Part shown: positions 8,516 through 41,680 of the stretch, piece after piece | Numbering within the stretch: the first letter of the stretch is position 1 | Layout of the letters: every line of letters starts with the position of its first letter | Source: Candidatus Latescibacterota bacterium | GTDB lineage: Bacteria; Latescibacterota; UBA2968; GCA-2709665 | DNA length: 64,000 bases | Direction of reading: 5' to 3' | NCBI GenBank assembly: GCA_965203805.1 | Contig: OZ241917.1 | Location: forward strand, 3,424,001-3,488,000 | The notes under the pieces: generated by a model | The model's input: only the letters and a program-made list of their open reading frames with translations | The model's database searches: none | What the model was told of the DNA's origin: nothing | Made by a program: the position numbers and the translations under genes

Positions 8516-8794
8516 TAGCCTGAATAATTCACCTAAACATGAACTAACATGGATGGACCTGCCTGCTGAAGCAGGCGAGGCAGGCAGGATGAACAGGATA
8601 AAGACCAAGAGCAGGACAAATGTTCACGATTCCGGGCCAAACCGATGGATCCTTGCCTCGGTGGGCTACAAAACATCTCCCTGACCAATCAATTTCATAA
8701 TTCATGAAATGCTGACGCGTGATATTTCGCAGAATCTATTGAAAAACAACCCGTTATACATCAAAACCAGGGTTTTCGTGAATAATCCACCATA
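8516..8794. mobile_element. MITE-like element family A, copy 2 (carries 27-bp hairpin insertion 8558-8584)
   Basis: Colinear with 2249-2499 apart from substitutions, a 1-bp indel and the 27-bp insert. Confidence 0.75.
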
Positions 8795-8988
8795 GAAGCT
8801 ACTTAGAAAATAACATTGGAAACTACGAAACACGCGAAAAAAACGAAAAAACCGTGGCTGATATTAATTGCCACAAGACGCGCAAAACCACAATGTTGCA
8901 GGTCAGCCTGGCAATGCAACGGTTTTCATCATTATGGGTGCCCCAAAGGGGCATGACAACTGTTTTAAAACTCCCAGCGGTCTTCGCG

Positions 8989-9015
8989 CCTGCCTGCTGC
9001 CGCAGGCAAGGCAGG
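8989..9015. repeat. 27-bp CCTGCC...GGCAGG hairpin element
   Basis: cctgcctgctgccgcaggcaaggcagg, nearly identical to 8558-8584. Confidence 0.7.
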
Positions 9016-9839
9016 CGGCTGCAGCCGTCTTCTGTTGAGAATTTCACGTAAAGACCATCCACTGTCAAGATGCCTGGCCCGTTGCGCACGACGCGGGCGG
9101 GCGGGAGAGGTTGTGGCGCCATCCGGACCACGAGGTTGTGCGCCGCACACGCCTCCGCCTGTAATGACCGGATGGACCGCAGGACGACGACCGGGTTCGC
9201 ACGGAGGAGCACCGGTCCAGGGTCGCCCGTTGCGGTCTTTCAACACGCTTTTGACGGTCCATCCGGCGTTTCGGGAGGTCGAGTCTCGACGGTATGATCT
9301 CATTGCCATCGAATAGCTTGCGGCATATCTTGCCCGAGCGAGAAAGACAAAAGGGCGGCAGGACAACGGCAGCTCCCAAAGGAGAACGTAAGGGGGCGCC
9401 GCCATTGGTTGCCCTTGGCGCCGGGTATGTCGTGCGCGTTTGACCGCCCTGGCCGCAGGACGATTTCGTCGACGGCGGCGCGTTGGGCCCCCCTCCTCGG
9501 CATCCGGGAGAGCCATCCGCCCGATGGAAGGCGGCACGGAATCATCTTCGGACTTCGCTCAGGCCTTCCGTCGAGGCGTAGCGCCGGGAATCCGGCCGCC
9601 GGTTCTTACCATCCTGGTGTGGCTGCTTCTCTATCTTACATCGCCCCGGTCGTCTTTCGCCGAGAGCAAAGTTTCATTTTCGACAAATTGAAGGGGCTGT
9701 TGCGAGTGAAACCGCGCGCACGGTCCTTTCTCAATCAAATTTAGCATTCTATGCGCGACACTTCTGTGGTATTTCGATCTCTATCAGTGATGCATGAGTG
9801 AAATATCGCCAATTATTCGACAGGTGGCGGGTACGGGGA

Positions 9840-15189: not shown

Positions 15190-15750
15190 GCTTTCAGCGG
15201 TCAGCATTCGGCAGTCAGCCGTCAGCAATCAGCTTGAGTCAAAAGCGAGAATCAAAAACAAGAGTCAAATTCAACTCACACAGAGACACGAAGGCACGAA
15301 GAAAACCAAAGCGGCCAAGAGCGAACCGCCCCCAGCCCCGCAAACCTCTCCCCCCGGCCCCCTCTCCCGGGGGGAGAGGGGGAGACAACCTGCTTCAACG
15401 GGGCGACGATAAGGCCTGGCGACATGGCCTCCCTGATGCGCAGACCTATCCCCCCTGCCTGCCGAAAAACCACCGCCAGGCAGGGACCCTTTCCTATAAG
15501 GAAAGGGTAACGAACGCCACGTGATAGGATCCGGGGGTGACCCTTCCGTCGGGAAGGGCGTAGGTCTCGAAAAGGGTAGACGTGAGACGGGAGATGATGT
15601 CAGTGCCCTATGGTTTTTCCAGTCGTTACCATTTCGGCAAAAAAACAGGCACGGTTAGCGTGAAAACACTGTGGTAACGTTATCATCTACCCTCTCACCG
15701 CTTTCAGGTTTTCATTCTTCCTTTTTCCCGTCTACCTTCTTACCGCCTTT
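15190..15750. repeat. Mosaic repeat island (heptamer runs, CCCTCTCCC hairpin, family B core)
   Basis: Shares cctgatgcgcagacc...cctataaggaaagggtaacgaacgcc with the islands at 25, 28, 32, 41 and 46 kb. Confidence 0.85.
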
Positions 15751-15896: not shown

Positions 15897-15901
15897 CTGG
15901 T

Positions 15902-19228: not shown

Positions 19229-20802
19229 ATGGCCAACCGGAGGTTTGAGATGTATCAGTATCGCCAGGTATTGACGCGTATGCGGTTGGGCGATTCGGAT
19301 CGTGCGATCGCCCGTTCCGGGTTGATGGGTCGGCGGAAGGCCGGCGCGCTTCGTGAAGTGGCAGGCCGTGAGGGATGGCTGGACGCTTCCAACGTGTTGC
19401 CCGATGATGCCACGCTGGTGCAGGTGGTTCAGGTTCCAACCTCGCGGCCTCAGTCGGCCTCGTCGGTTTTGCCCTACCAGGACAAGGTGACAGCTTGGTG
19501 GCGTGAGGGTATCCGGGGTACCGTCATCCACCAGGCGTTGGTGGACACCTACGGCTATGCTGGCTCGTATGCTTCCATCCGTCGTTTTCTCCAGCAGCTC
19601 AAAGACGCTCATCCCGACGTCACCACCGTGTTGGACTTCGATCCGGGCGACGTGGCGCAGGTGGACTTCGGGCGGGGTCCCACGATAGAGGACGTCTTCA
19701 CCCACCAGACCATCGCGACGTGGATCTTCGTGATGGTACTGGCCTGGTCTCGCCACCAGTATGCCGAGATCGTGCCGGACCAGAAGGTCGAGACGTGGCT
19801 TTCCTGCCACAGAAGCGCCTTCGAGTTCTTCGGCGGAGTCCCGGCACGCGTGGTGATCGACAACCCCAAAAACGCCATCACCAGGGCCTGCTACCACGAT
19901 CCGGAGGTGCAGCGCGCCTACGGCGAGTGCGCCTGCCTGCGTCCCTCGGACAGGCAGGCCGAAGGCTATGGCTTCACCATCTCCCCGTGCCCCGTGCGAG
20001 ACCCGAAGAAGAAGGGGCGCGTGGAGGCGGCCGTGAAGGTTGTCAAGCGCAGCTTTGTTCCCCTGCGCCAGTTCCGTGACATCAGAGATGCCAACCGGCA
20101 GTTGCAGGACTGGATCCCGGGGTGGCCGGTAACCGCATTCACGGCACCACCCACGAACGACCCCTGACACGCTTTGCACAGACCGAGCGCGAGTTCCTCA
20201 AGCCGTTACCCGCCATTCCACCTGAGCAGGCGGCCTGGGCCAAGGTGAAGGTTCACGGCGACTGCCACGTCCAGTTCGAGAAGTGTCGATACTCCGTGCC
20301 CTATGCCCTGGTGCGCCAACAGCTCTGGTTGCGGGCCAGCCCAAAAACCGTGAGGATCTACCAGAACCACAACATGGTGGCCGTTCATCCCCGTAAAAAC
20401 ACACCTGGTGCACGCGCGACCGTTACCGAACATCTGCCGCCAGAGGCGCGCGCTTTCCTGATGCGCGATCCACAATGGTGCCTCAAACAGGCACAGCGTA
20501 TCGGTCCTTCCTGCCACCGCCTCATCAAGACCCTCTTCTCCGATCGCGTGCTGGACAACCTCCGCGCGGCGCAGGGCATCATCCGACTTTCCGAACGCTA
20601 CGGCGCAAGGCGCCTTGAGGCCGCCTGCGACCGCGCCCTGGCCTATGACAACCCCCGCTACCGGAGTGTGAAGAGCATCCTCGAAAAAGGTCTGGACCAA
20701 CATAAGCATCCAGACGAGACGTCCACAGACCCGCACACCCTCGCGTCAGCCTATACGGGAGAGGGACGTTTCTGTCGCGATGCCACAACCCTCTTCAGCT
20801 AA
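19229..20802 (+). pseudogene. istA: IS21 transposase IstA, frameshifted near 20120, with in-frame 27-bp insert at 19932-19958
   Basis: QVDFG, IDNPK and KGRVE in ORF 19229-20167; GNRIHGTT...YSVP continues in another frame (20122-20802). Confidence 0.88.
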
Positions 20803-21914: not shown

Positions 21915-22192
21915 CACCGGTCTTACGCGACCTCTCCCCCCGGCCCCCTCTCCCGGGGGGAGAGGGGGAGACAACCAGGAGACGCGTCCGGTGGTGTGGA
22001 AGGGGCTGTTGTTCGCGTCAAAAACCGCCGCTCACCATCAGCCACGAACGCAGTTCCAACGGGTGTATATCCGCCGGCAGGCGACCTGTCAGGACACGAT
22101 GGAAAAACCGCACGAGGACCAACCGGTTTCCATTCTTCCTTTTTCGTTCTTCCTTTTTCATTCTTCCCTTTCCCGTCTCACCTGGGAGAGGG
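21915..22192. repeat. Mosaic repeat island (CCCTCTCCCGGG hairpin, family C)
   Basis: gttccaacgggtgtat...cacgaggaccaacc shared with ~23765, ~25600 and ~46360 (reverse). Confidence 0.75.
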
Positions 22193-28091: not shown

Positions 28092-28109
28092 GGCAAAACC
28101 TCCAAAAGC

Positions 28110-28990
28110 GGGGAGAGGGGAATAGCAGCAGTCAGCGGTCAGCAGTCAGCCTTCAGCAATCAGCTTGAGTCAAGAGCGAGAATCAAAAACAAGAGTCAAA
28201 TTCAACTTCCACATCTCCCCAAATTCCCTGAAGGCGGGGAGACGGGAGATGATCACTCGCGGCCACGGGACGACGATATGGCCGGGCGAGACCTCCTCCC
28301 TGATGCGCAGACCTCTCCCCCCTGCCTGCCGAAAAACCACCGCCAGGCAGGGACCCTCTCCTATAAGGAAAGGGTAACGAACGCCTCGCGATAGGATCCC
28401 GCTTTCCCCCTTCCTCACAGGAAGGGGGTAGGTCTCGAAAGGGGTAGACGTGAGATGAATGCCCTATGGTCTTTCTCGTCGTTACCATAGTCGGTAAAGA
28501 AACAGGCACGGTTAGCGTGAAAACACTGTGGTAACGTTTTCATCTACCGTCTACCGTCTTACGTCTCACCGAATTTACGCGTGCCGGTCATCTATAGATA
28601 CTCTGATTGACAGGAAATCGCCACCCGGCACATTTGCATGCCCAGTCCATCGACCCGTCACCGTTCCCCCTTCCTCGCAGGAAGGGGGTAGGTTGGTGGG
28701 TCTTTAAACGCTCCAGCGCGCAGGAACATCGCCGTACGGTTCCTTGTAAGTTCCTATCAAGCGAACGGTGGTGGTGTGGGGGGTTTTTCCGTGCAAATCC
28801 GTCCAGCAACATAGTTCCGGCAGGGCTGGTCCGGTGACAGGGCACCCAAATTCCAATTGCGCCACTGAGGTGGTTCACGGAAAAACCGGCCCCGCGCCGA
28901 GCGGCCTGCCTGCGCCGAAGCCTGCTCGGCAGGCAGGCGCCGTTCTTTTTGGTCCTTTTTCTTGGGCGCACAAGAAAAAGGACGTAAGTA
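28110..28990. repeat. Mosaic repeat island (B+G+D), approximate inverted copy of 40610-41630
   Basis: Direct sequence comparison; includes 33-bp hairpin 28905-28937. Confidence 0.88.
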
Positions 28991-29081
28991 TAATATTAAT
29001 AACAGGTTATTACGAAAAAAATGACCTCGCGGACCCTGAGCGAAAAATCCCGTTGGTTTTATCCCCGCGTTTTCGGAGACA

Positions 29082-32000
29082 TCAATGGTACCAAACGTCC
29101 GCTATTCGCCATGTGTCCCCGGGCGCGACGTCGTAGATGTAAAATGGTTGCCCCGAAAACGACGACGCCTCGGCGGAATCGGCGAGCGTGAGCTTTCCCT
29201 TCTCGGCGGTCTTCAATCGAGTCCCGGTCTGTCCGCGGGTATGCGAAATCGTCTTCCCATCGAACAGGTCACGCACCACCTCCAGCTTCAGCATCGGGGT
29301 ATCCGTCAACAGCGTCGCGCCCTCTGCACCGGTAATCCGTCCCTCGCTCAGCAGAAAGTCCAACCTGTCCACGGAGATCCGGTACCGGCCCTCGCCGGCT
29401 TGCGCTATGTCCGTGATCTCGTATGACGAATTGCAGATGTAGTCCGGATGCGCGAGCACGATTGTCTGCCCCGTCAATGAACCGTCCACCGGCAGGGGGG
29501 CGCGGGACGTGACGACGATCCGCCGATCCTCGATCTCCACGGCATCCAGCTCCCCCGCCCATTCTCCCGCACCCTCCATCCCGACGTCTCCGAACCGGAA
29601 CGCCTTTCCATTCACCACCTGCGCCCGCGTGATGGAATCGCCATCCCGCTCCACAAACGCCCAGTCGCCCTCGAATCGATACGGCAGGCCGTCCGCCTCG
29701 CCTGCCACCACCCCGTCCGTTCCGTGTACGATATAGTGGACCCGTTCGCCGATCGCCACCCTCAGGCCCATGTCCTTGCCGCCGGCACGAAGCGCCGCGA
29801 CACTGTCAATATACGGCGTTCCGCAATACGGCTCGAGTACGCCCGTGAACCGGTTCTCCCTTCCTTCCCCGCCCGGTCGTCTCACGATCACGTGCCGGTC
29901 CCAGGGACTGTGGCCCTGAAGACCCGTCCCTTCGGCGAGCCCGGTAATGACCGTCGAACCCGCCCCACCGGTCATGTGGAGCCTGATGCCGGCGCCCGTT
30001 GCTTCCGTCCGCCAGGTTGCGTTGAACCCGCCAGCCGTCCGGACCCTCGCCACGTCCTTCACGAACCCGTACCCGGGCGCCTCACCGAACGGGACGTCCG
30101 CCCCGGCCAGTGTCCCGTCCGCCTGCATGTCCGCGGACCCGCCATCCTCCAGTTCGATTTCGAACCGTTCCGCGTTGTCTCCCGCCCAGCTGTGGAAGGT
30201 GTAATCGTGTTCCGTCCCGCCCGCAATCCGGAATAGATCGACCATATATGCCCGCTCTTCGTCCACCGGGACGAGCGCCACCGCCCTGCGGTACAGGTCC
30301 GCGAGACCGGGGTAGGCCCGCTCGCCCGACGCATCGGCCAGGCGCACCCACGGTCCGTCCGCGAACAGATTCAGACTGCCCGTTGCGAACACCTGGTTCC
30401 GGCCGTCGATCAGCGCGGTGCAGTGACTGGCCGTATGGGTTTCCCATCCGTCCTTTTTAGGCGCCACCCAGCTCGGCGGATATCCCAGGTCGGCGGACAG
30501 ATCGTACCCGTACGCGATCAGATTCACCGCCAGTTTGTCCATATGTCCGTGACCCCGGTTCCCCTTCCCGTAGTTCAGGACCACGTGCCGGCGGCTGGAT
30601 TGTTCATCGCCCGCGCGCAAGATGCAAAATCCCGAATCGTGCAGCACGTCGCTCCCGGGCGATAGATCTTCCGGCGCCCGTGTTTCGCTCCACGGTTCGC
30701 AATGGAACAACAGGTAGAGGTCGCCGCCCTTGCGCGCGGCGTCCGGATCTCCGCCCGTGCCCGAAAGGATACGCCGGGCATAATGGTCGCGCGCCTCGGG
30801 CAGGCGCAGGTAGCCAATCTCGTCTTCCAGCGAATAGGGCGTCCGCAACACGCTGCTCCTTCCACCGCCCGTATCCCCGATCAGCGGGACGCGCCCGTCG
30901 CAGTCCACCGCGCGGGCGAAGTCCATCATCTCCCGCAGCCGGAACCCGGGATCGCGATACAGGTCTACCGGCGACGCAACGTCCTGAAACCCAAGGGTCC
31001 ATTCGGCGGCATTCAGCGCCCCCCGTATATTGCCCGCGCCGTAGCCGATCGAGTCGTACCAGAACTTCCCGTCCCGGAAGAAACTGTTGGACATCACGTT
31101 GTAGAGACCCGTCGGCGCCTCCAGGGCCTGTCTGATCATCGCCCCGTTCTGCAGGCAGGCCCCAACCTCGAGTAACGCGTAGAGCGACGACGTCAGGAAA
31201 TCGCCGCCAGCGAGGGGCAGCGTCCGGTCCAGAAACTCATAGGCATACGCGAACAGGTTCCGGTGGATATTAAATATGATATCTCCTGTTGTCGCCGGTC
31301 CGTTCGCGACGTCTCGCGTCTGGAAGAACCCCACGAGGTCCTCGTCCTCCCGCATCGCCTCGAAGACCAGATCGTACGTCACCGCCACGTTATGCAGGAA
31401 GGACTGCTCCCGCCCCGACGCCTCGCCAACGTACCCCCGGATCGGGTCCTTGCTCCGGTCGTAGGCCTCGTATCCCTCCTTGATGCCCCGCAACCTCCCG
31501 TAAACGTCGGCCAGACGGTTCAACAGGATCCCCGCCTTGTGCGCGTACTTCCGTTCGCCCGTAAATGCGTAGGCCAGGGCCAGCGCCTGCGAGGCCGACC
31601 GCCCCTGGTGGCCCTCCCCGGTCTGCGGGGCATACGGGCTGGAGAACAGACGGTAGAGCAGGTAGCACCGGTACGCCCCCGTGAAATAGTACGTGACGCC
31701 GGCGTTCGGAAACCCCTCGGGGGCCACCCACCCCGGCCCGTCGTCCACCATTTGTACTGGTTCTCCCGTGCCCGGATTGACGATCTCGACGCCCTGGTAC
31801 CACCATTCGTCCCCCAGATTGCACCGCCACTGGTATGGATGCAGAAGATCCGCCTCGAACGTGGACCGGTTGCCGCCGTGAATCGGACACCCGTCGTACT
31901 GGGCCACGGTCAGCGCCATCGGATTCTGCGTGGGCACCATCGCATAGAGCGTCTCATCGGAGAATCCCGCCCAGAAGTCGGCGTCCCTCACGATCTCGTC

Positions 32001-32249
32001 CACCATGTCGCGCGCCCAATCCAGCCGCTCCGCGTTGCGCCGTGCCCGGTTGAGGTCCTCCCGGTTGTAGATCCCTACCAGCCCCTCCCGCTTGCCGGCG
32101 CCGATCACGTCCTTATAGAATCCCGCCGCGCGCGTGTATCGATCCGGTTCGCGGTCCGGCAGCGGGTCCCGCAGATGCAGATCCTCGTAGAGCGCCCGCA
32201 ACGCCGCTTCATCCTCGACGATCTCGCCCTTCACAGGCATCTTGATCAT
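29082..32249 (-). CDS. Heparinase II/III-like polysaccharide lyase family protein
   Basis: ALAYAFTGERKYA, DGKFWYDSIGY, GHGHMDKL, DLGYP, TASHCTALIDG. Confidence 0.85.
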   Translation of the reverse strand: MIKMPVKGEIVEDEAALRALYEDLHLRDPLPDREPDRYTRAAGFYKDVIGAGKREGLVGIYNREDLNRARRNAERLDWARDMVDEIVRDADFWAGFSDETLYAMVPTQNPMALTVAQYDGCPIHGGNRSTFEADLLHPYQWRCNLGDEWWYQGVEIVNPGTGEPVQMVDDGPGWVAPEGFPNAGVTYYFTGAYRCYLLYRLFSSPYAPQTGEGHQGRSASQALALAYAFTGERKYAHKAGILLNRLADVYGRLRGIKEGYEAYDRSKDPIRGYVGEASGREQSFLHNVAVTYDLVFEAMREDEDLVGFFQTRDVANGPATTGDIIFNIHRNLFAYAYEFLDRTLPLAGGDFLTSSLYALLEVGACLQNGAMIRQALEAPTGLYNVMSNSFFRDGKFWYDSIGYGAGNIRGALNAAEWTLGFQDVASPVDLYRDPGFRLREMMDFARAVDCDGRVPLIGDTGGGRSSVLRTPYSLEDEIGYLRLPEARDHYARRILSGTGGDPDAARKGGDLYLLFHCEPWSETRAPEDLSPGSDVLHDSGFCILRAGDEQSSRRHVVLNYGKGNRGHGHMDKLAVNLIAYGYDLSADLGYPPSWVAPKKDGWETHTASHCTALIDGRNQVFATGSLNLFADGPWVRLADASGERAYPGLADLYRRAVALVPVDEERAYMVDLFRIAGGTEHDYTFHSWAGDNAERFEIELEDGGSADMQADGTLAGADVPFGEAPGYGFVKDVARVRTAGGFNATWRTEATGAGIRLHMTGGAGSTVITGLAEGTGLQGHSPWDRHVIVRRPGGEGRENRFTGVLEPYCGTPYIDSVAALRAGGKDMGLRVAIGERVHYIVHGTDGVVAGEADGLPYRFEGDWAFVERDGDSITRAQVVNGKAFRFGDVGMEGAGEWAGELDAVEIEDRRIVVTSRAPLPVDGSLTGQTIVLAHPDYICNSSYEITDIAQAGEGRYRISVDRLDFLLSEGRITGAEGATLLTDTPMLKLEVVRDLFDGKTISHTRGQTGTRLKTAEKGKLTLADSAEASSFSGQPFYIYDVAPGDTWRIADVWYH

Positions 32250-32399
32250 TTTCGCGCCTCCATTACATTAGCGGGGAAACCGACAATCCCGTCAGGATAG
32301 ATTCCTTTGGGTATGCATATCAGGCAGAATGAAAAAACGCTTTAAGATCGAAGAACTTCCAGTTATTTTTCGTACTCCGAGCGGCGCAGTCGAGAGGCA

Positions 32400-33120
32400 G
32401 CCGTCAGCTTGAAGCAAAATCGAAAACCAACAAGACGTAAATCAAATTCAACTTCCACATCTCCCCAAATTCCATAAAGGCGGGGAGACGGGAGAGGTGA
32501 GACGTGAGATGATCACTCGCGGCCACGGGACGACGATATGGCCGGGCGAGACCTCCTCCCTGATGCGCAGACCTCTCCCCCCTGCCTGCCGAAAAACCAC
32601 CGCCAGGCAGGGACCCTCTCCTATAAGGAAAGGGTAACGAACGCCTCGCGATAGGATCCCGCTTTCCCCCTTCCTCACAGGAAGGGGGTAGGTCTCGAAA
32701 GGAGTAGACGTGAGATGAATGCCCTATGGTCTTTCTCGTCGTTACCATATCGGTAAAAAAACAGGCACGGTTAGCGTGAAAACACTGTGGTAACGTTTTC
32801 ATCTACCGTCTACCGTCTTACGTCTCACCGGTTTTAAAATAGTCGCCACTGGGCGTGGGGCCTGCTATATGCATAGCGCGAATACCCTCACAGGATGCAC
32901 GGGATACTCTGGCCTGTCACCCTGCGTAGCACGTCGAGCCGTGTAGCTGGACGGATCAGCGCGCTCTGCTCTGGTAGTCCTCCGGTCAGGAAATACGTTT
33001 GTAGACCGATTGGCGTCTGAATGATGAGGACAGCCCTTAGCTATTTGCCGACAGCTGTCAGCTCGAATCAAAGACGAACCGCCCCCGGCCCCCTCTCCTG
33101 TGAGGAGAGGGGGAGAAAAG
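32400..33120. repeat. Mosaic repeat island (B+E)
   Basis: Matches 28200-28570 and 23066-23260. Confidence 0.88.
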
Positions 33121-33139
33121 TCAGGAGACCCTGTAGTCG

Positions 33140-34216
33140 ATGCATAAACCTTTGAAACTCGCGGTTGTGGGTGTGGGCCGAATCGGCGTGTTCCACGCCA
33201 GGCACGTCCAGGAACTGGGCGAAGCCGGCGGGACCTGCGAACTGGCCGCCGTGGCGGACCGCTACGGAAGCACCGCGGAGACGGTTGCCCGGGAACTCCA
33301 GCGAAACCAGACGGCCGAAATCCGCGCCTTCAAAAGCACCTCCGACCTGACGGACGCAGGTCTGATCGACGCGGCCGTGGTGGCCTCCAGGACCGAGGAC
33401 CACGAAGCGGACGCGCGGACGCTGATTGACGCCGGCCATCGCGTAATGCTGGAGAAACCGCTCGCCCACTCGCTCGATTCCGCCGCCGACTTCGTCAGAT
33501 ATCTGTCGCACGATAATACGAAAAAGCAAGCGCTCATGCAGGCCTTTATGAGGCGCTTCGACGAACCTCTGTGCCATGCGAAAGCCCTGCTGGACGGGAA
33601 TGCGGTCGGCGCGCCGTTCAAGGTCGTTTCCGTCCTCGAAGACCCGCATCCGCCGCCGGTCGGATACAACAGCCCCGGCATCCTGCCGGATATGTCCGTA
33701 CACAACATCGACGAAGCGATCTGGCTTCTGGGATCGCGCCCGGTACGGGCAAGCGCCATGGGCGCCAACCTGCATAACTACAGAATCACGACCGTGAAGG
33801 AAGACTTCGACGACGCGTTCCTGCAGTTGGCGTTTCCCGACGAGGTAATCGCGCAGGTCCAGGTAAGCAGAAACCACGTGGCGGGGTATCGCAACGAAAC
33901 GTGGATCTACGGCCGGAGCGGCCTGATCCACGTGGGCCATTTCCAGGAAGATCCGCTGCAGGTATCGGTGGAAGCGTACAGCCGGGAGGGCGCCGTCGAA
34001 AAGAGGGGCTTCCGGATGAGAGATTACGGCGGGGAAGTCCCCGTGTTCATCGAACGCTTCGGCCCGGCCTACAAGCGGGAACTCGCGCATTTTGTCGACC
34101 GGTGCCTGAAGGACGAACCCTTCCGCGTGACGCAGGAGGCCGGCCTCCAGGCGATGCGTGTGGCCGAAGCGGGAGTCCGGTCGCTGCGGGCAGGCGCGAC
34201 GGCGGTAACGATTTAA
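33140..34216 (+). CDS. Gfo/Idh/MocA oxidoreductase (inositol dehydrogenase-like)
   Basis: GVGRIG, LEKPLA, FMRRFD, DMSVHNID. Confidence 0.92.
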   Translation: MHKPLKLAVVGVGRIGVFHARHVQELGEAGGTCELAAVADRYGSTAETVARELQRNQTAEIRAFKSTSDLTDAGLIDAAVVASRTEDHEADARTLIDAGHRVMLEKPLAHSLDSAADFVRYLSHDNTKKQALMQAFMRRFDEPLCHAKALLDGNAVGAPFKVVSVLEDPHPPPVGYNSPGILPDMSVHNIDEAIWLLGSRPVRASAMGANLHNYRITTVKEDFDDAFLQLAFPDEVIAQVQVSRNHVAGYRNETWIYGRSGLIHVGHFQEDPLQVSVEAYSREGAVEKRGFRMRDYGGEVPVFIERFGPAYKRELAHFVDRCLKDEPFRVTQEAGLQAMRVAEAGVRSLRAGATAVTI

Positions 34217-34240
34217 ACGAAACGCTAATCCGGCGATCCC

Positions 34241-35299
34241 TCACGACAGGGGGAAGTCGACCCGGCAATTCCCGCCGTGGTGCGACTTCAGGATCCCCAT
34301 CATGATCTCCACCGTCTTGCGCGCCTCCCGCGCGGGAGAGACCAGATCGCCGCCTCCCTCCAGAACCCGGATCAGTTCCGCCACCGCCGCGGTCTGGTTT
34401 TCCATCGCGTATTTCCCGGACAAAATGGGCGACGCGGACGACTCGAAATGCGATCTGCCCCGGATCAGGGTTGCGCCCTGGTCTGAAATCTCGATGCGCC
34501 CGTCCTCGCACGTCAGCGCGAATTTCGAACCGGGGAAATCCACCTTGTACGCGTTGTAGAAGGCCCTCACGCCGTTGTCGAACCGGATGTACGCCGACGC
34601 GTACGGATCGACCGCGGGATCTTTCCCGCCGTCCCCCCTGTATTCGGTGAAATGCTCGAAGCCCTCTTCAAGTTCAGCCGCCAGCCACAGTGGATCGGCC
34701 TCGGCAAAGAAGCAGATCATGTCAAGCAGGTGGGTGCCGTTCCGGAACATCATCGCCCGACGGCTGAACTGCTCGCACACAACCGTCCGCAACGGGCCGA
34801 TCTCTCCGCTGCGAATGATGTCACGCGCCTTGAGATAGCTGGAATTCCAGCGCCGGGTGTGTTCGATCGAAAGCAGTACGCCGTTGGCTTCGGCGGCGGC
34901 GATCATCCGGTCCGCGTCTTCCAGCGAGGTGGCGATCGGCTTCTCGCAGAGAATGGCGCGCGCCCCGCTCTCGGCGGCCGCCACGGTCATATCGGCGTGT
35001 ACATGGTCCGACGTGGCCACGCTCACCAGGTCCGGTTTCTCCGCCGCCAGCATTTCCCGGTAGTCCGTGTAGAGCCGCACGCCGGGCCACACGTCTCCCC
35101 ATTGCGCCTTGAAATCGGCCAGCGCTTCCTCCCGCAGGTCGCACACACCCGCCACTTCCGTTTGCGGATGCCGGTCGTAGGCCCCGGCGTGGGAGCCGGG
35201 CATGGCGCCGTACACCGGAATCTGCCCGTCTTCTTCGGGCCGCCTGGCGCCAATGCCGGTCAGTCCGATAATTACCGCACGGTACTCGGGTTTTGACAT
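34241..35299 (-). CDS. Gfo/Idh/MocA oxidoreductase
   Basis: CEKPIA, HTRRW, NGTHLLD. Confidence 0.92.
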   Translation of the reverse strand: MSKPEYRAVIIGLTGIGARRPEEDGQIPVYGAMPGSHAGAYDRHPQTEVAGVCDLREEALADFKAQWGDVWPGVRLYTDYREMLAAEKPDLVSVATSDHVHADMTVAAAESGARAILCEKPIATSLEDADRMIAAAEANGVLLSIEHTRRWNSSYLKARDIIRSGEIGPLRTVVCEQFSRRAMMFRNGTHLLDMICFFAEADPLWLAAELEEGFEHFTEYRGDGGKDPAVDPYASAYIRFDNGVRAFYNAYKVDFPGSKFALTCEDGRIEISDQGATLIRGRSHFESSASPILSGKYAMENQTAAVAELIRVLEGGGDLVSPAREARKTVEIMMGILKSHHGGNCRVDFPLS

Positions 35300-35389
35300 G
35301 GTCGTTCCCTCCCCGGCGCGGCTTCGCGATGCCGGCGACGTTTCCGCGCCAATGTGTTTACCGCGTTGCTGTGTTCAGGACGATCGCCA

Positions 35390-35730
35390 AATCTGTCATC
35401 CTGAGGAACCTGAGGAAGCCGTTTTGAGGGTGGGGCAGACATTCCTGTCTGCCTGCCTCGCGTTGTACGTGCTGCCTGAATACGGGCATTTCGACAAGCT
35501 CAATGACCACGTTTTGGTAGTTTCAATATACGTCATTGAGCCGTGAACGGGATCCCGTTCAATACCCTGATCCGATCCCTGAGCATGCGGTGCCCTGAGC
35601 TTGTCGAAGGGTCGAAGGGCCGGCGAAGGGATTGCGAATGGTTTACGGGCTGCCTGAATGCGGGCATTTCGACAAGCTCAATGACCACGCGTTCGTAGGC
35701 AATCTTGGATTTCGCTCAGAATGACATGTG
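35390..35730. repeat. Palindromic repeat cluster (family F/REP-like)
   Basis: gtggggcagacattcctgtctgcc, ttcgacaagctcaatgacc x2 and ctcagaatgaca shared with the 44.2-45.3 kb array. Confidence 0.8.
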
Positions 35731-35752
35731 TGCCGATCGTCTTCTTCAACAC

Positions 35753-36904
35753 CTACTCCAGTTTCTCAAGCGCTTTTCGCGCGCCCTCGTGTTTTTCGTT
35801 CAATTTCAGAACCTGCCTGTAGGCATCGCGGGCAAGTTTCCGTTCTCCCCGGCGCGCGTATATACGGCCGAGCCTGTAGAGTCCGTTTATGCGTGCAAAC
35901 TTCCATCGCGCCGGCAGTTGGCGAAGATAGGTCGTCAACGATTCCAGTCCCAGGTCAAGTTCCGTCCCGGTCAGGGCGGCAAACCTGCCGATCGCATAGA
36001 GCGCCTGTAGCCGATCTCCCTCGGCCGTGAGCGCACTCTCGAAGGTTTCTGCGCTCGGGTCTGAATCGGACGCCAGCGCTGCAAGAGAATCCATCGCCGC
36101 CTCCAGGCTGCGGCGTGCGGCCTCGAATGCTTTTTCGTTTTCCTTCTCCAGACGGTACAGGTTGCTCAATCGCCGCAGGATCGAACTATTGTCGGGAGAG
36201 GTCTGCAGAAAGGCCTCGTAGACCCGAATCGCGTCCAGGCGCCGTTCATCGCGCAGGTAGAGCGACGCCAGGGAAATGACGGGGCGCACGTCGCCATTCG
36301 CCAATGCGACCGCCGCAAGATAGGCTTTCTCCCGTTTGTCCCGGGCCTTTTCTTTGGCGTGGATGAGCCCCCACGCCAGATGACCTTCCATCGGATTCCG
36401 GGATTCTATTTCCCTGGCCTGCTCAATTGCTTTTTCCTTTTTACCGCCCAGAATCCCCGGCGCGAAAAGGTGGTACTCCAGCAGCTTCCTCCGGCCGTCG
36501 AGGTGATCGGGGTCGAGCAGAACGGCCTTCTCGAACGCCTTGCGCGCGCGGCGGGCCTTGCCGGGCTTCCCGAAGATGTTGGCGCGCTGCGCCCTGGCGC
36601 CGTACATCATTCCCAGCCAGCACTGATAGTCGGCCGTTTCAGGGTCCGCCTTAACGGCTTTCTCGAACCAGTCGAACGCCGCCTCGATGTCCCTCTCCCA
36701 GGTATTGATGCGACCCAGCAGATAGAAGATTTCCGGCCGGCCGGTCCCCTGACGCGCGAGGTGCGTTTTCAGACTGTCTTCGGCATCGGCGTATCGGCCG
36801 TCAATGAACGCCGACAGGCCCGGTCGTATCTCCGCTGACGCTACCTCGAAGGTCGGCGACAGGAACACCAGAATAATTATAAAGATTACCGCCCGCCTTG
36901 CCAA
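35753..36904 (-). CDS. Exported TPR protein
   Basis: TTG start after AAGGAGG; signal peptide; TPR helices; APGILGG motif. Confidence 0.85.
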   Translation of the reverse strand: MARRAVIFIIILVFLSPTFEVASAEIRPGLSAFIDGRYADAEDSLKTHLARQGTGRPEIFYLLGRINTWERDIEAAFDWFEKAVKADPETADYQCWLGMMYGARAQRANIFGKPGKARRARKAFEKAVLLDPDHLDGRRKLLEYHLFAPGILGGKKEKAIEQAREIESRNPMEGHLAWGLIHAKEKARDKREKAYLAAVALANGDVRPVISLASLYLRDERRLDAIRVYEAFLQTSPDNSSILRRLSNLYRLEKENEKAFEAARRSLEAAMDSLAALASDSDPSAETFESALTAEGDRLQALYAIGRFAALTGTELDLGLESLTTYLRQLPARWKFARINGLYRLGRIYARRGERKLARDAYRQVLKLNEKHEGARKALEKLE

Positions 36905-36978
36905 TTCATCCTCCTTTATTTCTTTCTCGTTCCCTCGTTCCCTCGTTCCCTCGTCTTCTCGTTCCCTCGTCTTCTCGC

Positions 36979-38670
36979 CTATTGCCACAGTCCGTGAAAG
37001 TCCGCGTACAGCGCGTGCCGGCGCAGCAGTTCGTCATGGCTGCCGACGTCGACGCCCGAACCGTCCATGACCAGAACCGTACGCGCGCGGCGGGTGGCCG
37101 CCATGCGGTGCGCGACAACGACCAATGTGCAACCCAGCGCCATAAAGGCCCGCTCCGCGCGTTCCTCGGCCGCGGGGTCCAGGTGACAGGTGGCCTCGTC
37201 CAGCACGACAACGGGCGATGCCGCCAGGTGCGCCCGCGCCAGCGTCACAAGTTGCCGCTCCCCCTCGGACAGACCGGACTTCGTCAGGTTGACTTCGGCG
37301 TCCAGGCCGCCCAGCCGGTCCAGTACACGATCCAGCCCCACGGCCGCGGCGGACGCGGCGACTTCCTCGTCGGTCGCGGAGGGCCGCAGGTAAATCAGAT
37401 TTTCTCGTAACGAACCCGCGAAGACATACGACTCCTGCGGTACCATCGAGACGAGCCGCGGGCGGTCCGGACGCAGAAAACAGGGCTGTCCGTCGACCGT
37501 GATCTTGCCGCTGTCGGGGCGAAGCACCCCGGCCAGGAGGGCGGCCAGCGTGGACTTGCCAATGCCGCTGGGTCCCACAATCGCCAGGTGATCGCCGTGT
37601 GCGACGTCCAGAGAAAATCCCCGGACGATGGGCTCGCCCGCGCCGTACGCAAAGGTCAGGTCGCGTACGGCCACAGTCGGTTCTTCGGACGGCGCGGGCG
37701 CGCACGCTTCGCCATCCATCGTCTCCGTCGTCTCTTTCCCGCCGGTTTCCCGCAGGCGGGCGTGGTAAACGCGCAACGTCACCAACCTGGCCAGCCCGTA
37801 CGTGACGAAAGCCGTCGCGGCGGGCAGACCGGCAAGAAGGTAGGTGAATGAACCGACGACCTCTCCCGCGGTCAGTAGCTCGCTGCGGACCAGGTACGGG
37901 ACGAAGCCGAGAGCCGTCAGGGCCGGTAGCGCGGTGGCGACCGCGTTCACCAATCCGAATCCGACCGACTGATGGTCGCGATCCCTGAGCGACGCCCTGA
38001 TGGTATGCTCAATCCGTTTTTCGACACGGTCCATGGCGAAACCCTTCGCGCCCGCCGCCACCAGATCGCGCACCGACTGAAGCGCCCGGGTCGTTTCGCC
38101 ATGCGTATCCTCCTCGGCGAGCATGGCCGCCGTCTCGTTGCGAACTTTGAGGCGCACGACCACGACCTGCATCACGGCGCCGATAACCAGCCAGGGGAGA
38201 ACGAGGGCCAGAAGCGTCCACGACAACGTCGCGAGTCCGATTGCCGAACCGATGGCGAAAAGACCGCTCGGGCCCAGGCGTAAGAAGTGCGCCAGAACGT
38301 CGACGAGTGCCGGCACGTGCTGGGTGAGTTCCGCTCCGGAACGCAGAACCCGGTCTGAATGCACCGCATCTCCAAGTGTATGCCGAACGACGTCGCGGGT
38401 CAGATCGAACTGCACCCGCGACGTCAGTATCGCCGTCCAGTGATAGAGACGCAGCAGCGACCAGACACCCACCGCACCCACGCCCAGAAGCCCGCCGATC
38501 CACGCCAGGGATGCTGTCAGGTCGCCCGCGCGCGCCGCATCCACGGCGCTGGCGATCAAACGACCGGAGAGCGCCGGCGCGAGTGTCACCCCCACGCTGC
38601 ACACGGCGATACGAAACAGGCAACCGCGATGCCTCGACACGTAGCCGTATAGCGGCAGGATGTGCGTCAT
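36979..38670 (-). CDS. ABC exporter (TMD+NBD), RamAB/AmfAB-like subunit 2
   Basis: True start MTHILP at 38670 (ATGA overlap); GPSGIGKST, LSEGERQ, LDEATCHLDPAAEERAERAF. Confidence 0.9.
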   Translation of the reverse strand: MTHILPLYGYVSRHRGCLFRIAVCSVGVTLAPALSGRLIASAVDAARAGDLTASLAWIGGLLGVGAVGVWSLLRLYHWTAILTSRVQFDLTRDVVRHTLGDAVHSDRVLRSGAELTQHVPALVDVLAHFLRLGPSGLFAIGSAIGLATLSWTLLALVLPWLVIGAVMQVVVVRLKVRNETAAMLAEEDTHGETTRALQSVRDLVAAGAKGFAMDRVEKRIEHTIRASLRDRDHQSVGFGLVNAVATALPALTALGFVPYLVRSELLTAGEVVGSFTYLLAGLPAATAFVTYGLARLVTLRVYHARLRETGGKETTETMDGEACAPAPSEEPTVAVRDLTFAYGAGEPIVRGFSLDVAHGDHLAIVGPSGIGKSTLAALLAGVLRPDSGKITVDGQPCFLRPDRPRLVSMVPQESYVFAGSLRENLIYLRPSATDEEVAASAAAVGLDRVLDRLGGLDAEVNLTKSGLSEGERQLVTLARAHLAASPVVVLDEATCHLDPAAEERAERAFMALGCTLVVVAHRMAATRRARTVLVMDGSGVDVGSHDELLRRHALYADFHGLWQ

Positions 38671-40421
38671 GGGGCCGCCTCCTGCGCCGGGTCGCCCTGA
38701 AACGCGGCGCGGTAGGCAGGGTCTCGCCACAGTTCGATATGCGGCGCCACCCGCCGGACCTCGCCTCTGTAGAGCCAGGCGACGAGATCGGCCGCGGCGG
38801 CCGTACTCGTACGGTGGGCAATGACGACGGTCGTGCGTGAGACACCGAGCCTTCGCAGCGCGGCCAGGACGCGCGCCTCGGTAGCCACGTCCAGACTGCT
38901 GAGCGCGTCGTCCAGAATCAGAATGGGCGTATCCCCGAGCGCGGCCCTTGCGAGGCCCAGCCGCTGGTGTTCGCCGCCGGACATGGGCGCATCGCCAAGG
39001 GGTGTGTCGTAGCCCTTCGGCAGACGCTCGATGAACGCATCCGCTTCGACGTACCGCGCAGCGGACCGCACCTCCTCGTGCGTGGCTTCCGCGCCCAGCA
39101 GGATCACGTCGCGAATCGTGTCGCCGAAAAGCGCGGGCCGCTCGAATGCGTAGCCCACCCGGCGCGAGAGCTCGTCGCGCGACATTTCCGCGACCGGCGT
39201 GCCGTCGATGCAAACGATGCCGCTGTCCGGGTCCTGAAGCCGGCCGATCAGCCCGGCAAGCGTGGTCTTGCCGACCCCCGATTCGCCGACCAGCGCAACC
39301 GTCTTTCCGGCGGGTATGCGGAGGTCCACGTGCCGGAGAACTTCCCTTTCCGGCGCACCCAGAGATACGTCTTCGATGCTGATCTCGCCGGGCCCCGCGG
39401 CGCCGGACGCGTCCGACCGGGGTTCCGGAACCGCGGCCGGAGATCGAAGAACGGCCAGCACCCGGGCCGCGTGGGCGCGAAAGATGGCGATCTGGAACCA
39501 GCCGTTGTCCAACACGCCGGCGACGCTTGAATATGTCATCTGCGCGTAACGGATCGCGGCCATCAGCGCGCCCACGGTCAGGCCGCCTGCCGCCAGGAGA
39601 CAAACGCCGGTGACCGCGGTAACCGTCAGAACGACGTGGTTGGCGCTTGTCACCGTCACGGCGCCGCGGCCGAAGCTCTCCAGGATCTCGCGCGTTTTGT
39701 CAGCCAAATCCGGAAGGGGCCGCGTGATCCGTTCGACTTCACGTTCCAGGGTTCCGGCCGCCCGTATCGTGCGCCTTCCCGCGAGGGCGCCGGTGTACGC
39801 GTTCACCATTCGGCTGTTCAGTTCGTCATGCGCGGTCTGTCCGGCGGTTAACGTACCCATCAGTCGACGCATGAACAGGATGACGGCCCCCACCCCGCAA
39901 AGCGCAACCGCGACAAACACCCAGTGTACGTACAGCAGCGCGACGAGGCTGCCCGCCGCCGTGAGGATTCCCGTGCCGATTCTCAACAGGGTCTCCGGGT
40001 AACGCGGCAGGTGCGTCGCCTCGAAGCGAATCCGGTTCTGCAGGTCTCCGTCGTCGAACGGCCGGCGGCCGGGCAAGCCGAGATCCAGCGCATGGTCGAC
40101 CATTTCGCGCGTGAGCCGCCTTTCCGCGGCGGCGCGGAATCTGGCCCTCACGGGATCGGTGACGATTTCGGTAATCACCGAAACGACCATCGCCACGGCC
40201 AGGCTGGAAAACCCCCATCCTATGTGTCCTTCCACTGCCTCGTCGATCGTCACGGCGGCCAGGGCCGGCGCTGCCAGACCCGCGGCGACGGCCAGCATGC
40301 TGATCAGGGCGTCGAGCGCGAGCCAGTGCCACGCCCCGCGGGCATAGGGGCGCAGAAACGCCATCACCTCGATGATACCCGGTACCGCCGGATCGGCCGC
40401 CTGACTGTTCGTGTCCTTCAT
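38667..40421 (-). CDS. ABC exporter (TMD+NBD), RamAB/AmfAB-like subunit 1
   Basis: GESGVGKTT, YAFERP, MSGGEHQRLGLARA, LDDALSSLD. Confidence 0.9.
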   Translation of the reverse strand: MKDTNSQAADPAVPGIIEVMAFLRPYARGAWHWLALDALISMLAVAAGLAAPALAAVTIDEAVEGHIGWGFSSLAVAMVVSVITEIVTDPVRARFRAAAERRLTREMVDHALDLGLPGRRPFDDGDLQNRIRFEATHLPRYPETLLRIGTGILTAAGSLVALLYVHWVFVAVALCGVGAVILFMRRLMGTLTAGQTAHDELNSRMVNAYTGALAGRRTIRAAGTLEREVERITRPLPDLADKTREILESFGRGAVTVTSANHVVLTVTAVTGVCLLAAGGLTVGALMAAIRYAQMTYSSVAGVLDNGWFQIAIFRAHAARVLAVLRSPAAVPEPRSDASGAAGPGEISIEDVSLGAPEREVLRHVDLRIPAGKTVALVGESGVGKTTLAGLIGRLQDPDSGIVCIDGTPVAEMSRDELSRRVGYAFERPALFGDTIRDVILLGAEATHEEVRSAARYVEADAFIERLPKGYDTPLGDAPMSGGEHQRLGLARAALGDTPILILDDALSSLDVATEARVLAALRRLGVSRTTVVIAHRTSTAAAADLVAWLYRGEVRRVAPHIELWRDPAYRAAFQGDPAQEAAP

Positions 40422-40469
40422 ACGATTCTCTTCTGCCACTACGTCACAACCATTTCAAAAGGCCGTGAG

Positions 40470-41680
40470 ACGGGAGAAAGGTCGTTCCTCTCGCGGTTTA
40501 TCCATAGTGTCCCGACAGCGTGCCTTCCGACGGAATTGGGGCGGGGAACAGGAGAATGACGGGTTTTGCTGTGTGTACGCCGATGTATTTCACAATAAAT
40601 CTTTTATTTTCATTTTCTTACGTCCTTTTTCTTGTACGCCCAAGAAAAAGGACCAAAAAGAACGGCGCCTGCCTGCCGAGCAGGCTTCGGCGCAGGCAGG
40701 CCGCTCGGCGCGGGGCCGGTTTTTCCGTGAACCACCTCAGTGGCGGAAACGGGAGTCGGCTGCCCTGTCACCGGACCAGCCCATCCCGAACTAAGTTGCT
40801 GGACGGATTTGCACGGAAAAACCCCACACACCACCACCGTTCGCTTGATAGGAACTTACAAAGCACCGTACGGCGATGTTCCTGCGCGCTGGAGCGTCTA
40901 CAGACCCCCCAACACCCCCACCAACCTACCCCCTATCCCCCTTCCCGGGGGAAGGGGGGACCCCGGATCCTATTACGTGATCCGCGTTGCCCTTTCCTTT
41001 AGGAAAGGGTCCTGTCTGCCGGTGATTTTTCGGCAGGCAGGGGGATAGGTCTGCGCATCCGCGCGGTAATGTCGCCAGGCCTCATCGTCGTCCCGTCGAC
41101 GCAGGTTGTCATCTCCCGTCTCACGTCTCCCCTCTCCCCGCCTTTCAGACCTACCCCCTATCCCCCTTCCTGTGAGGAAGGGGGAACGGTGATGGGTCGA
41201 TGGACCGGGCATGCAAATGTGCCGGGTGGCGATTTCCTGTCAATCAGAGTATCTATAGATCACCGGCACGCGTAAATTCGGTGAGACGGTAGAGGGTAGA
41301 CGGTAGATGAAGACATTCACAGCAGTGTTTCTTCATAAACCGTGCCTGCTAATTTACCGTTATCGTAACGACTGGAAAGACCATAGTGCACTCACGGTAT
41401 CTCCCGTCTCACGTCTTGCGTCTCCCCGCTTTTGCGAGACCTACCCCCTATCGCGTGGCGTTCGTTACCCTTTCCTTATAGGAAAGGGTCCCTGCCTGGC
41501 GGTGGTTTTTCGGCAGGCAGGGGGGATAGGTCTGCGCATCAGGGAGGAGGTCTCGCCCGGCCATATCGTCGTCCCGTGGCCGCGAGTGATCATCTCCCGT
41601 CTCACGTCTACCCTCTCCCCGCTTCTGAGGGGTTGGGGGTGAGGGCGCTTTAGCTTCCAGCCGACCGCTGGTTTTGATCC
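40470..41680. repeat. Mosaic repeat island (D, two B copies, G) in reverse orientation
   Basis: Reverse complement of the 28.2-29.0 kb blocks; 33-bp hairpin 40668-40700. Confidence 0.88.

Follow-up and report, generated by a model that had tools for sequence, protein, structure and literature searches.

The question raised by a 64,000-nucleotide stretch of the genome of a Candidatus Latescibacterota bacterium (bases 3,424,001-3,488,000 of a single contig; this whole stretch, at its full length, is called "the window" below) is whether a single DNA hairpin of about thirty nucleotides can be a mobile element in its own right. A first-pass annotation of the window had proposed that very small hairpins with CCTGCC...GGCAGG ends insert precisely into other sequences, with both filled and empty sites visible, and that these elements are non-autonomous and moved in trans by an enzyme which they do not encode. 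The analysis described here supports that core reading. Each of the claimed filled and empty pairs is confirmed by alignment, the hairpins are insertions and not the survivors of deletion, and the family is not peculiar to the source genome, being present in many phyla and in phage contigs. The feature is a new, tag-less, cross-phylum variant of small-palindrome mobile DNA, of the kind represented by repetitive extragenic palindromic sequences (REPs) and small dispersed repeats (SDRs).

The source genome (G000; other genomes and loci are designated by G and L numbers) has 5.87 Mb and 59% G+C. Its closest public relatives, judged by a conserved protein and, among the matches listed, by the repeat itself, are metagenome-assembled genomes (MAGs) labelled Candidatus Latescibacterota, and contigs near-identical to it are present in sponge, coral and marine metagenome runs. 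The window contains dense composite repeats, tandem heptamers, one copy of an IS21 insertion sequence (IS) and ordinary genes.

Census of the hairpins and of clean insertion sites

When elements are defined strictly by the 8-nt termini CCTG(C/T)CTG...CAG(G/A)CAGG, a genome-wide motif count gives about 227 elements comprising 87 distinct sequences. Their lengths are mostly 33, 31, 30, 27 and 36 bp, with a mode of 33 bp and a range of 19-45 bp. The search pattern suggested in the first-pass annotation has 21 matches in the window, some of them overlapping, at 15 distinct places, while 100 dinucleotide-preserving shuffles gave a mean of 0.29 matches and a maximum of 2.

Further filled and empty polymorphisms were sought without bias towards the motif, by comparing the source genome with itself by BLASTN and collecting every clean gap of 12-120 bp with 25 well-aligned columns on each side. 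This comparison yields 164 distinct inserted segments. The motif CCTGYC...GRCAGG is complete in 70 of them, one of its ends is present in 7, and the remaining 87 have neither end. Since these 87 segments are mostly changes in the length of tandem arrays, with units of, for example, 14 or 13 bp, essentially all clean indels between repeat copies of this genome that are not of tandem origin are due to the hairpins. The smallest inserts for which filled and empty pairs are found have 19 bp (4 cases). One 33-mer is present in 15 identical copies with 11 different flanks, and unrelated flanking contexts number 98 in the source genome and 89 in other genomes across phyla. The targets include other repeats, IS elements, the hairpins' own copies and protein-coding genes. 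Among the tandem-unit changes, 31 indels have 14 bp, many of them due to the unit TCGGCCACAATGAC, which occurs once or twice per copy of another repeat family at about 20 sites in the source genome (e.g. 515158, 963959 and 5535243).

Anatomy, junctions and target

The consensus of 88 distinct 33-mers from the source genome and other genomes reads CCTGCCT, GC, an inner stem-loop, a GC bulge and AGGCAGG. From the outside inwards, a 7-bp stem (CCTGCCT/AGGCAGG) is thus followed by a 2-nt GC bulge and then by an inner stem-loop whose sequence varies. The inner pair formed by positions 10 and 22 covaries, being C-G in 71 and A-T in 10 of these sequences, and the only common change in the outer arms is C to T, which leaves a G.T wobble on one strand and is found in 60 of the 227 elements (30 + 30). 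From this covariation and wobble pattern it follows that the hairpin structure is under selection. Because arms with the G.T wobble are common and the doubly changed T/A form was not seen among the elements of the source genome, the pattern also suggests that one strand must fold. The termini had been described as conserved and the loops as variable, and this holds: the outer C...G around CTG...CAG is kept in 220 of 232 elements, whatever the flank, and the inner sequence varies. Read directly from the sequence, the termini contain a stop codon in no frame on either strand.

The absence of a target-site duplication (TSD), also claimed at the outset, holds wherever the boundaries are unambiguous, as at the junctions tgga|cagg, gatc|caca, acag|taag, acga|cgca, gcca|tcgg and ttcg|aagg (the bar marks the point of insertion). 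In the 98 unrelated contexts of the source genome, the base at -1 is G in 68, the base at +1 is C in 70, and both are present in 54, the frequency of the GC dinucleotide in this genome being 8.5%; neither is present in 14, including the filled and empty pair at gcca|tcgg. The other genomes supply 89 contexts, of which 75 have a purine at -1 and 67 have a pyrimidine at +1. Insertion thus occurs preferentially between a purine and a pyrimidine (R|Y), and from the flank counts both junctions of the element (R|C and G|Y) are, like the target, purine-pyrimidine steps. One site, G|CAGACATT, is a repeated target of different hairpin subfamilies. A preference for the apex of other palindromes, suggested by anecdotal cases, was rejected: the junction lies in an apical loop in 26 of 109 empty sites (24%), as compared with 30% and 23% in controls. 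The flanks of these 109 sites, once joined, do fold more stably, at -7.9 kcal/mol compared with -5.5 and -4.9 kcal/mol in the controls.

Polarity of the filled and empty states

The polarity of the polymorphism is seen in an IS whose transposase matches the Pfam family DDE_Tnp_1_4, of which there are 8 copies in the source genome. Measured by identity to the reference copy, four copies at about 86% have no insert at any of the four hairpin sites, an 88% copy has one insert, a 96% copy has two, and the reference copy has four; a 98% copy has the first insert and an empty second site, and its alignment ends at the 33-bp site. The first insert is present in 4 of the 8 copies, the second in 2 and the third in 1, while the fourth is scored in 1 of 8, with the alignment of a second copy ending at that site, where the same 33-mer is listed. 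The filled copies are those most similar to the reference copy, and the Pfam profile of the transposase is interrupted by the hairpin-encoded extra residues, the consensus being without them.

Three further observations agree with this stepwise gain. A 33-bp hairpin lies directly after the stop codon of one RAYT-like gene of the source genome (RAYT-B), and the corresponding site is empty in the sister species G001 and G013. A single site in the family D repeat exists in three states, namely empty, filled by 33 bp, and filled by 63 bp that consist of the 33-mer with a 30-mer nested in it; nested elements also occur in relatives and in Thiorhodospira sibirica. In the restriction subunit HsdR, compared across four phyla, hairpins encode extra residues at five positions; at four of these the insert is private to a single sequence, and at the fifth it is common to the closest two. 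The stepwise gain in the IS, the empty site in sister species, the nesting and the private HsdR inserts together give the polarity, and the outgroup check that had been proposed as a test (IS copies, sister species, HsdR homologues) returns the empty state as ancestral.

Hairpins inside genes

The inserts in verified genes have lengths that are multiples of 3, and the frame stays open. One copy of the DDE_Tnp_1_4 transposase carries inserts of 21 + 21 + 33 bp in an open frame, with the 19-bp insert of this IS lying upstream of the Pfam profile match. The insert in istA has 27 bp, those in DUF772 transposases have 33 bp, and those in HsdR have 27-39 bp. In-gene copies of such lengths add 7-13 residues, often of the form LPA...QAG. 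The first-pass annotation had stated that stand-alone lengths are multiples of 3; as a rule this fails, and what stands is a tendency, seen in 61 of the 70 hairpin indels and, among distinct simple sequences, in 48 of 80, counts which are not an independent statistic because subfamilies share descent.

When the longest 53 of the 84 hairpin-containing open frames of at least 150 amino acids (aa) were scanned against Pfam, 30 had matches, and 13 of these 30 are of restriction-modification or defence type, a share that is biased upward because the first nine frames were taken from one cluster. The 13 frames are four HsdR, one HsdM, one HsdS, two N6_N4 methylases, two DUF1156 methylases, and one each of SNF2/PLD, AAA_21 and SLFN-AlbA_2.

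Type I restriction-modification loci also abound in small selfish genes. At one such locus of Latescibacterota (L178), hsdS contains an in-frame DUF559 domain, and the locus has in addition, within 8 kb, another DUF559, a GIY-YIG gene and 3 hairpins; in a Syntrophaceae genome (L172), a GIY-YIG gene and 4 hairpins surround hsdR. Separately, and outside the window, a DUF1156-type DNA methylase of the source genome (G000:C1:4546926-4550681, L002/L003) has a RAYT-like Y1 transposase domain within its reading frame, the open frame having 1252 aa. The same arrangement is found in G008, G011 (twice) and G016 in open frames of 1203-1441 aa, and in a Lentisphaeria genome (L176) in a frame of 1381 aa that contains several further small in-frame inserts encoded by palindromes.

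Distribution across genomes

Among 41 relatives, in which hairpins were counted as CCTGYCTG-N3-30-CAGRCAGG, the counts range from 0 to 292, with nine genomes having 66-292. One rich genome, G024 (133 hairpins), is from a different family from the others, and its 15 other sampled genus-mates have 0-10. The dominant subfamily differs in each rich genome.

Beyond the relatives, a scan of one genome per species with a 33-mer frame of 20 fixed bases found at least 113 stretches, the rough chance expectation being about 1-8. Among the matches listed are Verrucomicrobiota, Lentisphaerota, Kiritimatiellia, Planctomycetota, Omnitrophota, Methylomirabilota, Nitrospirota, Desulfobacterota, Acidobacteriota, Patescibacteria and Proteobacteria, and the inner hairpin plan is identical in all of them. 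Whole-genome counts in five genomes of other phyla are 4, 7, 53 (Thiorhodospira sibirica ATCC 700588), 32 and 28. In IMG/VR, 11 viral contigs contain the element, one copy being in frame in an open reading frame (ORF) for a capsid fusion. In T. sibirica (L232), the RAYT locus is followed downstream by about 9 tandem units of a 12-bp repeat, CGTCCTTCCTGC (about 2140-2240 of the reoriented locus).

The proposed mechanism and the search for the enzyme

The explanation that best accounts for these results, to which a probability of about 0.55 is assigned, is that the hairpins are non-autonomous micro-transposons that move as folded single strands under the action of a structure-specific enzyme supplied in trans. 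Under the single-strand mechanism that we infer, the enzyme, a nuclease or transposase, would cleave both junctions at the base of the stem (R|CCTG and CAGG|Y) and rejoin the hairpin to a single-stranded target at an R|Y step. Such a reaction would resemble the "peel-and-paste" transposition of IS200/IS605-type HUH (Y1) enzymes, which provide the best analogue because of their scarless junctions, hairpin dependence and mobilization of elements that contain no gene.

The search for nuclease or HUH genes that co-occur with the motif, which had been proposed together with the original reading, did produce candidates (RAYT-like Y1, DUF559 and GIY-YIG), none of which fits every genome. A RAYT-like Y1 protein is tentatively placed first among them. 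The source genome has two Y1 genes, both RAYT-like and each with a hairpin about 10-30 bp from the ORF (for positions chosen at random, the chance of a hairpin within 300 bp is about 2%), and Y1 matches are present in all five of the carriers from other phyla. DUF559 (Vsr-like) nucleases are the second candidate, and an enzyme of an unrecognized kind is at least as likely as either. In the source genome, searches returned no match to TnpB, no match to a Y2 transposase (a search whose positive control also gave no match) and no convincing long autonomous element with the same termini; orphan terminal 8-mers number 354 and 387, which by a rough calculation is near chance.

Several observations weigh against the proposed mechanism or against a Y1 enzyme as its agent. 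The target preference extends to R|Y and to no tetra- or pentanucleotide. There is no orientation bias by replichore of the kind seen in IS608-type elements: three markers (the G.T wobble strand, the stronger-folding strand and the GCGC-3' end) are divided about 50:50 on both GC-skew arms, with counts of 16 vs 18 and 14 vs 12. Precise excision was sought in the three IS21 copies of the source genome, which are equidistant (1.4-1.7%; 14, 11 and 10 informative sites) and give no order of events, so that no excision event is demonstrable from their comparison. The hairpin at RAYT-B is an insertion specific to the source genome, and hairpins are found near none of 11 RAYT loci of relatives (L004-L014) and within 1.5 kb of none of 10 Y1 loci in the five genomes of other phyla. 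RAYT-B and the RAYT of T. sibirica are flanked by their own, different repeats. Among the relatives, G007 has 139 hairpins and no match to PF01797, and G024 has broken matches only; at least 10 hairpins are found in 11 of 27 genomes with a Y1 match and in 3 of 14 without, which makes Y1 a poor predictor, and the hairpin count is 2 in a genome with 32 IS200-type matches and 1 in a genome with 75. DUF559 is the better tracker, since at least 10 hairpins are found in 13 of 20 relatives with a strong match to it and in 1 of 21 without, counts whose thresholds were set post hoc on genomes that are kin and thus not independent.

The second RAYT-like gene of the source genome (L001, G000:C1:4532312-4535533; 201 aa) has GTAG-tagged REP flanks, GTAGGGCAGGGATGCCCTC, with 29 copies of the palindrome genome-wide, and this locus is an ordinary REPtron. 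A classical REP/REPIN family, REP-C (GGCAGACAGGAATGTCTGCC), has 32 copies in the source genome (e.g. at 35435-35452 and 44383-44400 of the window); it flanks a third type of RAYT in relatives G002, G005 and G006 (L010-L012), and the source genome has no RAYT of that type. The REP-C 10-mer GGCAGACAGG is the same as the variant 3' end of the hairpin. This third RAYT type was considered as the hairpin enzyme and rejected, since its presence does not track hairpin counts.

Alternative explanations

The association with DUF559 leads to a rather unlikely alternative, according to which a small stand-alone nicking or homing-type nuclease (a DUF559/Vsr-like PD-(D/E)XK enzyme or a GIY-YIG enzyme) nicks R|Y steps, and repair of the nick incorporates the hairpin by copying or ligation. 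Apart from the counts among relatives, this is favoured by five stand-alone DUF559 genes in the source genome, several of which lie in hairpin-rich repeat arrays, and, in other genomes, by the proximity of individual genes to hairpins (17 bp from the end of a DUF559 ORF at L178, and 12 bp from a GIY-YIG ORF at L193). However, the adjacency in the source genome is explained by the presence of a DUF559 gene inside a composite repeat that carries the hairpin, and the association fails in G024 and in G044 (32 hairpins), neither of which has a DUF559 match, and largely fails in T. sibirica, where matches are weak only; conversely, G041 has a strong match yet 4 hairpins. The small GIY-YIG gene is absent from the source genome, whose 2 matches to it lie in frames of 629 and 678 aa, and among the matches listed DUF559 is found in 2 of 113 loci and GIY-YIG in 4 of 113. 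We know of no Vsr-type enzyme that transposes DNA. It is improbable that there is no dedicated transposition at all and that a few ancient insertions have been spread passively, through gene conversion between copies of a repeat and through hitch-hiking in larger repeats, in IS copies and in defence genes acquired horizontally. Some copies have evidently travelled in this way, since 29 copies of a 31-mer share 2 contexts, 12 of 20 sampled T. sibirica copies lie in one context, and the HsdR sequences of L159 and L172 share one insert; the three IS21 copies, which give no clear order of events, are also compatible with it. Against this stand the 98 unrelated contexts in the source genome and 89 across phyla, the identical 33-mers in 11 unrelated contexts and the inserts in unique genes at the five HsdR positions, while nesting and a consistent R|Y target are impossible to obtain by conversion between homologous flanks.

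Palindromes are prone to deletion, and the empty IS21 copy is not clearly more distant than a filled one, so it must be asked whether the filled state is ancestral and the empty sites have arisen by precise deletion of the hairpin, through slippage or hairpin processing. This is very improbable given the hierarchical gain in the DDE_Tnp_1_4 IS, all 4 distant copies of which are empty, the insert-free Pfam consensus, the RAYT-B flank that is empty in two sister species, and the HsdR homologues of other phyla, which lack one another's inserts. Because no direct repeats flank the hairpins to permit slippage, deletion would have to consist of repeated exact loss, and it would also have to account for nested copies. 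The idea that the hairpins are miniature inverted-repeat transposable elements (MITEs) derived from a DDE transposon, or that a tyrosine or serine recombinase uses them as sites with GC as the crossover dinucleotide, is hardly credible. It draws on the TG...CA found two bases inside the termini and on the 54 of 98 G|C sites, which could be read as a 2-bp GC repeat around CTG...CAG. Both the 2-bp TSD model and the crossover model were rejected, since they fail at non-GC sites, where there is no TSD (14 of the 98 sites having neither G at -1 nor C at +1), and since the first C and last G of the element are fixed whatever the flank; moreover, no longer element with these ends was found in the source genome.

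Relation to known systems

A literature search did not find the hairpin sequence family described, the comparison with SDR4-6 and with the minor REP families of PMC3733652 being by description only. The behaviour of the hairpins is closest to that of REPs and cyanobacterial SDRs, and that of the in-frame copies to that of Rickettsia palindromic elements (RPEs), an analogy which the first-pass annotation had drawn and which is apt for insertions in genes.

REPs, with their BIME and REPIN arrangements and the associated RAYT (TnpA-REP) proteins, including the GTAG- and CGTC-tagged superfamilies, are treated by Di Nocera et al. 2013 (PMC3733652) and Bertels & Rainey 2011 (PMC3116915). Like REPs, the hairpins are 20-40-bp GC-rich imperfect palindromes with tens to hundreds of copies, a patchy distribution, subfamilies with compensatory stem changes, and a presumed single-strand mechanism. 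The in-ORF REPs reported in PMC3733652 lie in genes for DNA-processing enzymes (uvrA, recBCD, DNA polymerase and helicase genes), and some hairpins likewise lie in frame in such ORFs, in this case hsdR, hsdM, hsdS and methylase genes. Unlike REPs, the hairpins have no GTAG or CGTC tag, both ends being CCTG/CAGG, their 20 terminal bases are constant across phyla, and clean filled and empty sites mark the single hairpin as the mobile unit. They are single or nested, in contrast to the inverted doublets with a spacer that constitute REPINs, they are not mainly extragenic, and, unlike the repeats of a REPtron, they are not the repeats that flank RAYT genes.

SDR4-6 of Nostoc punctiforme, reported by Elhai et al. 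in 2008, are said to be hairpins of 21-27 nt that were regarded as mobile; they are reportedly inserted in other repeats and mobile elements of genomes rich in tandem heptamers, and reportedly confined to a few heterocystous cyanobacteria. The present hairpins are similarly very small, mobile and located inside other repeats, and the heptamer arrays of the source genome adjoin composite repeats, but their sequence and phylum are different, they span many phyla and phage contigs, and filled and empty pairs extend down to 19 bp. RPEs have about 100-150 bp, and the hairpins differ from them in size (19-45 bp), in sequence and in crossing phyla. RPEs, which are summarized in the background section of PMC3733652, are confined to Rickettsia; they resemble the hairpins in being palindromes that lie in frame in genes which are probably still functional and in having ends without a stop codon.

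In elements of the IS200/IS605 family, the two subterminal hairpins differ from each other, and insertion takes place 3' of a defined 4-5-nt target and shows a strand bias. Likenesses to these elements, and to their gene-less derivatives (PATEs), are the lack of a TSD, the seamless junctions and, as would be expected for the hairpins, hairpin dependence and mobilization of gene-less derivatives in trans; movement of PATEs by the Y1 HUH enzyme TnpA is covered by Quentin et al. 2018 (PMC6006769). The differences are that one hairpin forms the whole element, that the target is R|Y, that there is no replichore bias, that genomes with many IS200 copies are nearly free of hairpins, and that, unlike those of PATEs, the hairpin ends match no resident full-length tnpA-carrying IS in the source genome. 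Bacterial MITEs such as Correia, Nezha and ERIC, as reviewed in PMC3184786, have 70-400 bp, the terminal inverted repeats of a parent IS, and flanking direct repeats. The hairpins are like them in being non-autonomous, in having inverted-repeat ends and in that filled and empty sites are the evidence of mobility, and unlike them in having neither a TSD nor a parent element.

To our knowledge, the mobile unit of REPs is still debated and the enzyme of SDRs is not known. The stepwise gain, the nesting and the orthologous empty sites make the present family one of the cleanest cases for a single hairpin of about 30 nt, and as few as 19 nt, as the mobile unit. The same 20 terminal bases recur in Latescibacterota, the Planctomycetes-Verrucomicrobia-Chlamydiae (PVC) phyla, Desulfobacterota, the Candidate Phyla Radiation (CPR), a gammaproteobacterium in culture and contigs of phages. 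It follows that an enzyme which acts in trans and is conserved should exist and be findable, and the 53 copies in T. sibirica ATCC 700588 make the question experimentally accessible. The hairpins remodel proteins in frame, notably the subunits of restriction-modification systems, and interrupt IS and repeat families, which is relevant to annotation, to repeat-based strain typing and to the decay or diversification of defence genes. It is conceivable, though doubtful, that they form a pan-bacterial class of the smallest known mobile DNA, documented inserts having 19-33 nt, with an unrecognized transposition chemistry in which a structure-specific enzyme cuts and rejoins R|Y steps at the foot of a hairpin. 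If so, candidates for the enzyme would be a nuclease of the DUF559/Vsr-like kind and a RAYT that acts on hairpins other than its cognate ones, and the elements would spread between phyla by way of restriction-modification and other defence genes and phages, writing LPA...QAG-type peptides into proteins.

Elements and other features of the window

The coordinates of the elements and of the empty sites are collected in Table 1.

Table 1. Hairpin elements and empty sites in the window (window coordinates)
Feature	Position	Evidence
27-bp hairpin in MITE copy 2, filled site	8558-8584	clean 27-column gap vs copy 1; self-comparison indel
Empty site in MITE copy 1, ggatgga|caggatg	2289|2290	alignment
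27-bp lone copy, same subfamily as 8558-8584	8989-9015	DNA fold -9.7 kcal/mol
27-bp element in frame in IS21 istA	19932-19958	Pfam rve and Mu-transpos_C_2 on flanking frames; self-comparison indel
33-bp element in family D repeat, filled	28905-28937	alignment; self-comparison indel
33-bp element in inverted family D repeat, filled	40668-40700	alignment; self-comparison indel; DNA fold -11.4 kcal/mol
Empty family D site, gagcgg|cac	23664|23665	alignment
Empty family D site, inverted copy	61565|61566	alignment
31-bp version fixed in composite "family B" repeat	15454-15484	
31-bp identical copies	23327-23357, 25233-25263, 28321-28351, 32581-32611	
31-bp reverse-oriented variants	41011-41041, 41491-41521, 46698-46728	
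Doubtful 33-bp copy, within heparinase-II/III-like ORF	31127-31159	right 8-nt termini; weak interior; fold -3.9 kcal/mol

The first-pass annotation had named five cases, the first four of which are borne out. In the MITE, the alignment of copy 2 (8368-8860) with copy 1 (2100-2560) has the clean gap as its only difference of that kind, and across the genome 3 copies of the MITE are filled and 4 empty. The lone 27-bp copy lies between flanks that are single-copy in the source genome, so that it has no empty counterpart within that genome. The element inside istA is present in two of the three IS21 copies and absent from the third. The 33-bp inserts in two family D copies, with two other copies empty, are likewise confirmed. 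The fifth case, a 31-bp version in family B, exists, with 8 copies in the window, but these are not independent insertions: all 29 copies in the genome share just 2 flanking contexts, and the 31-mer is therefore a passenger of the larger repeat. A match to the search pattern at 3157-3189 was rejected as a chance match since it has no terminal stem. Rfam models had no match at the gathering threshold in the 64-kb window. Population polymorphism was sought in Logan contigs of 4 public runs aligned with positions 22001-42000, and no usable evidence was obtained; at the two 33-bp skips, 28902-28936 and 40666-40700, the sides are short (21-27 letters) and the depth is high, so that these skips come from other copies of the repeat.

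The IS21 copy of the window is probably dead, judging from its sequence, because istA (19229-20802) is broken into two overlapping frames of 312 and 226 aa and has in addition a 49-bp indel at 19760-19808 relative to another IS21 copy.

A pyridoxal-dependent decarboxylase gene at 50108-51628 on the minus strand has homologues with 70-88% protein identity in MAGs labelled as many phyla, among them Gemmatimonadota, Binatia, Nitrospirales, Spirochaetia and Gammaproteobacteria, and this pattern of similarity suggests that the gene may have spread horizontally inside one type of community.

The composite-repeat arrays, with units of about 300 bp, are represented at 15195-15282, 22841-22928 and 28126-28213 of the window and at 3.33-3.35 Mb of the source genome. 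They are composed of tandem heptamers (e.g. CGGTCAG), A-rich "caagagtcaaa" modules and palindromes of C and G runs (CCTCTCCCCCCGG...), and one unit contains a DUF559 gene. Another repeat family, at 35411-35737 and 44190-45288, is made up of 23-bp modules of the TTCGACAAGCTCAG type, the number of which varies between copies.

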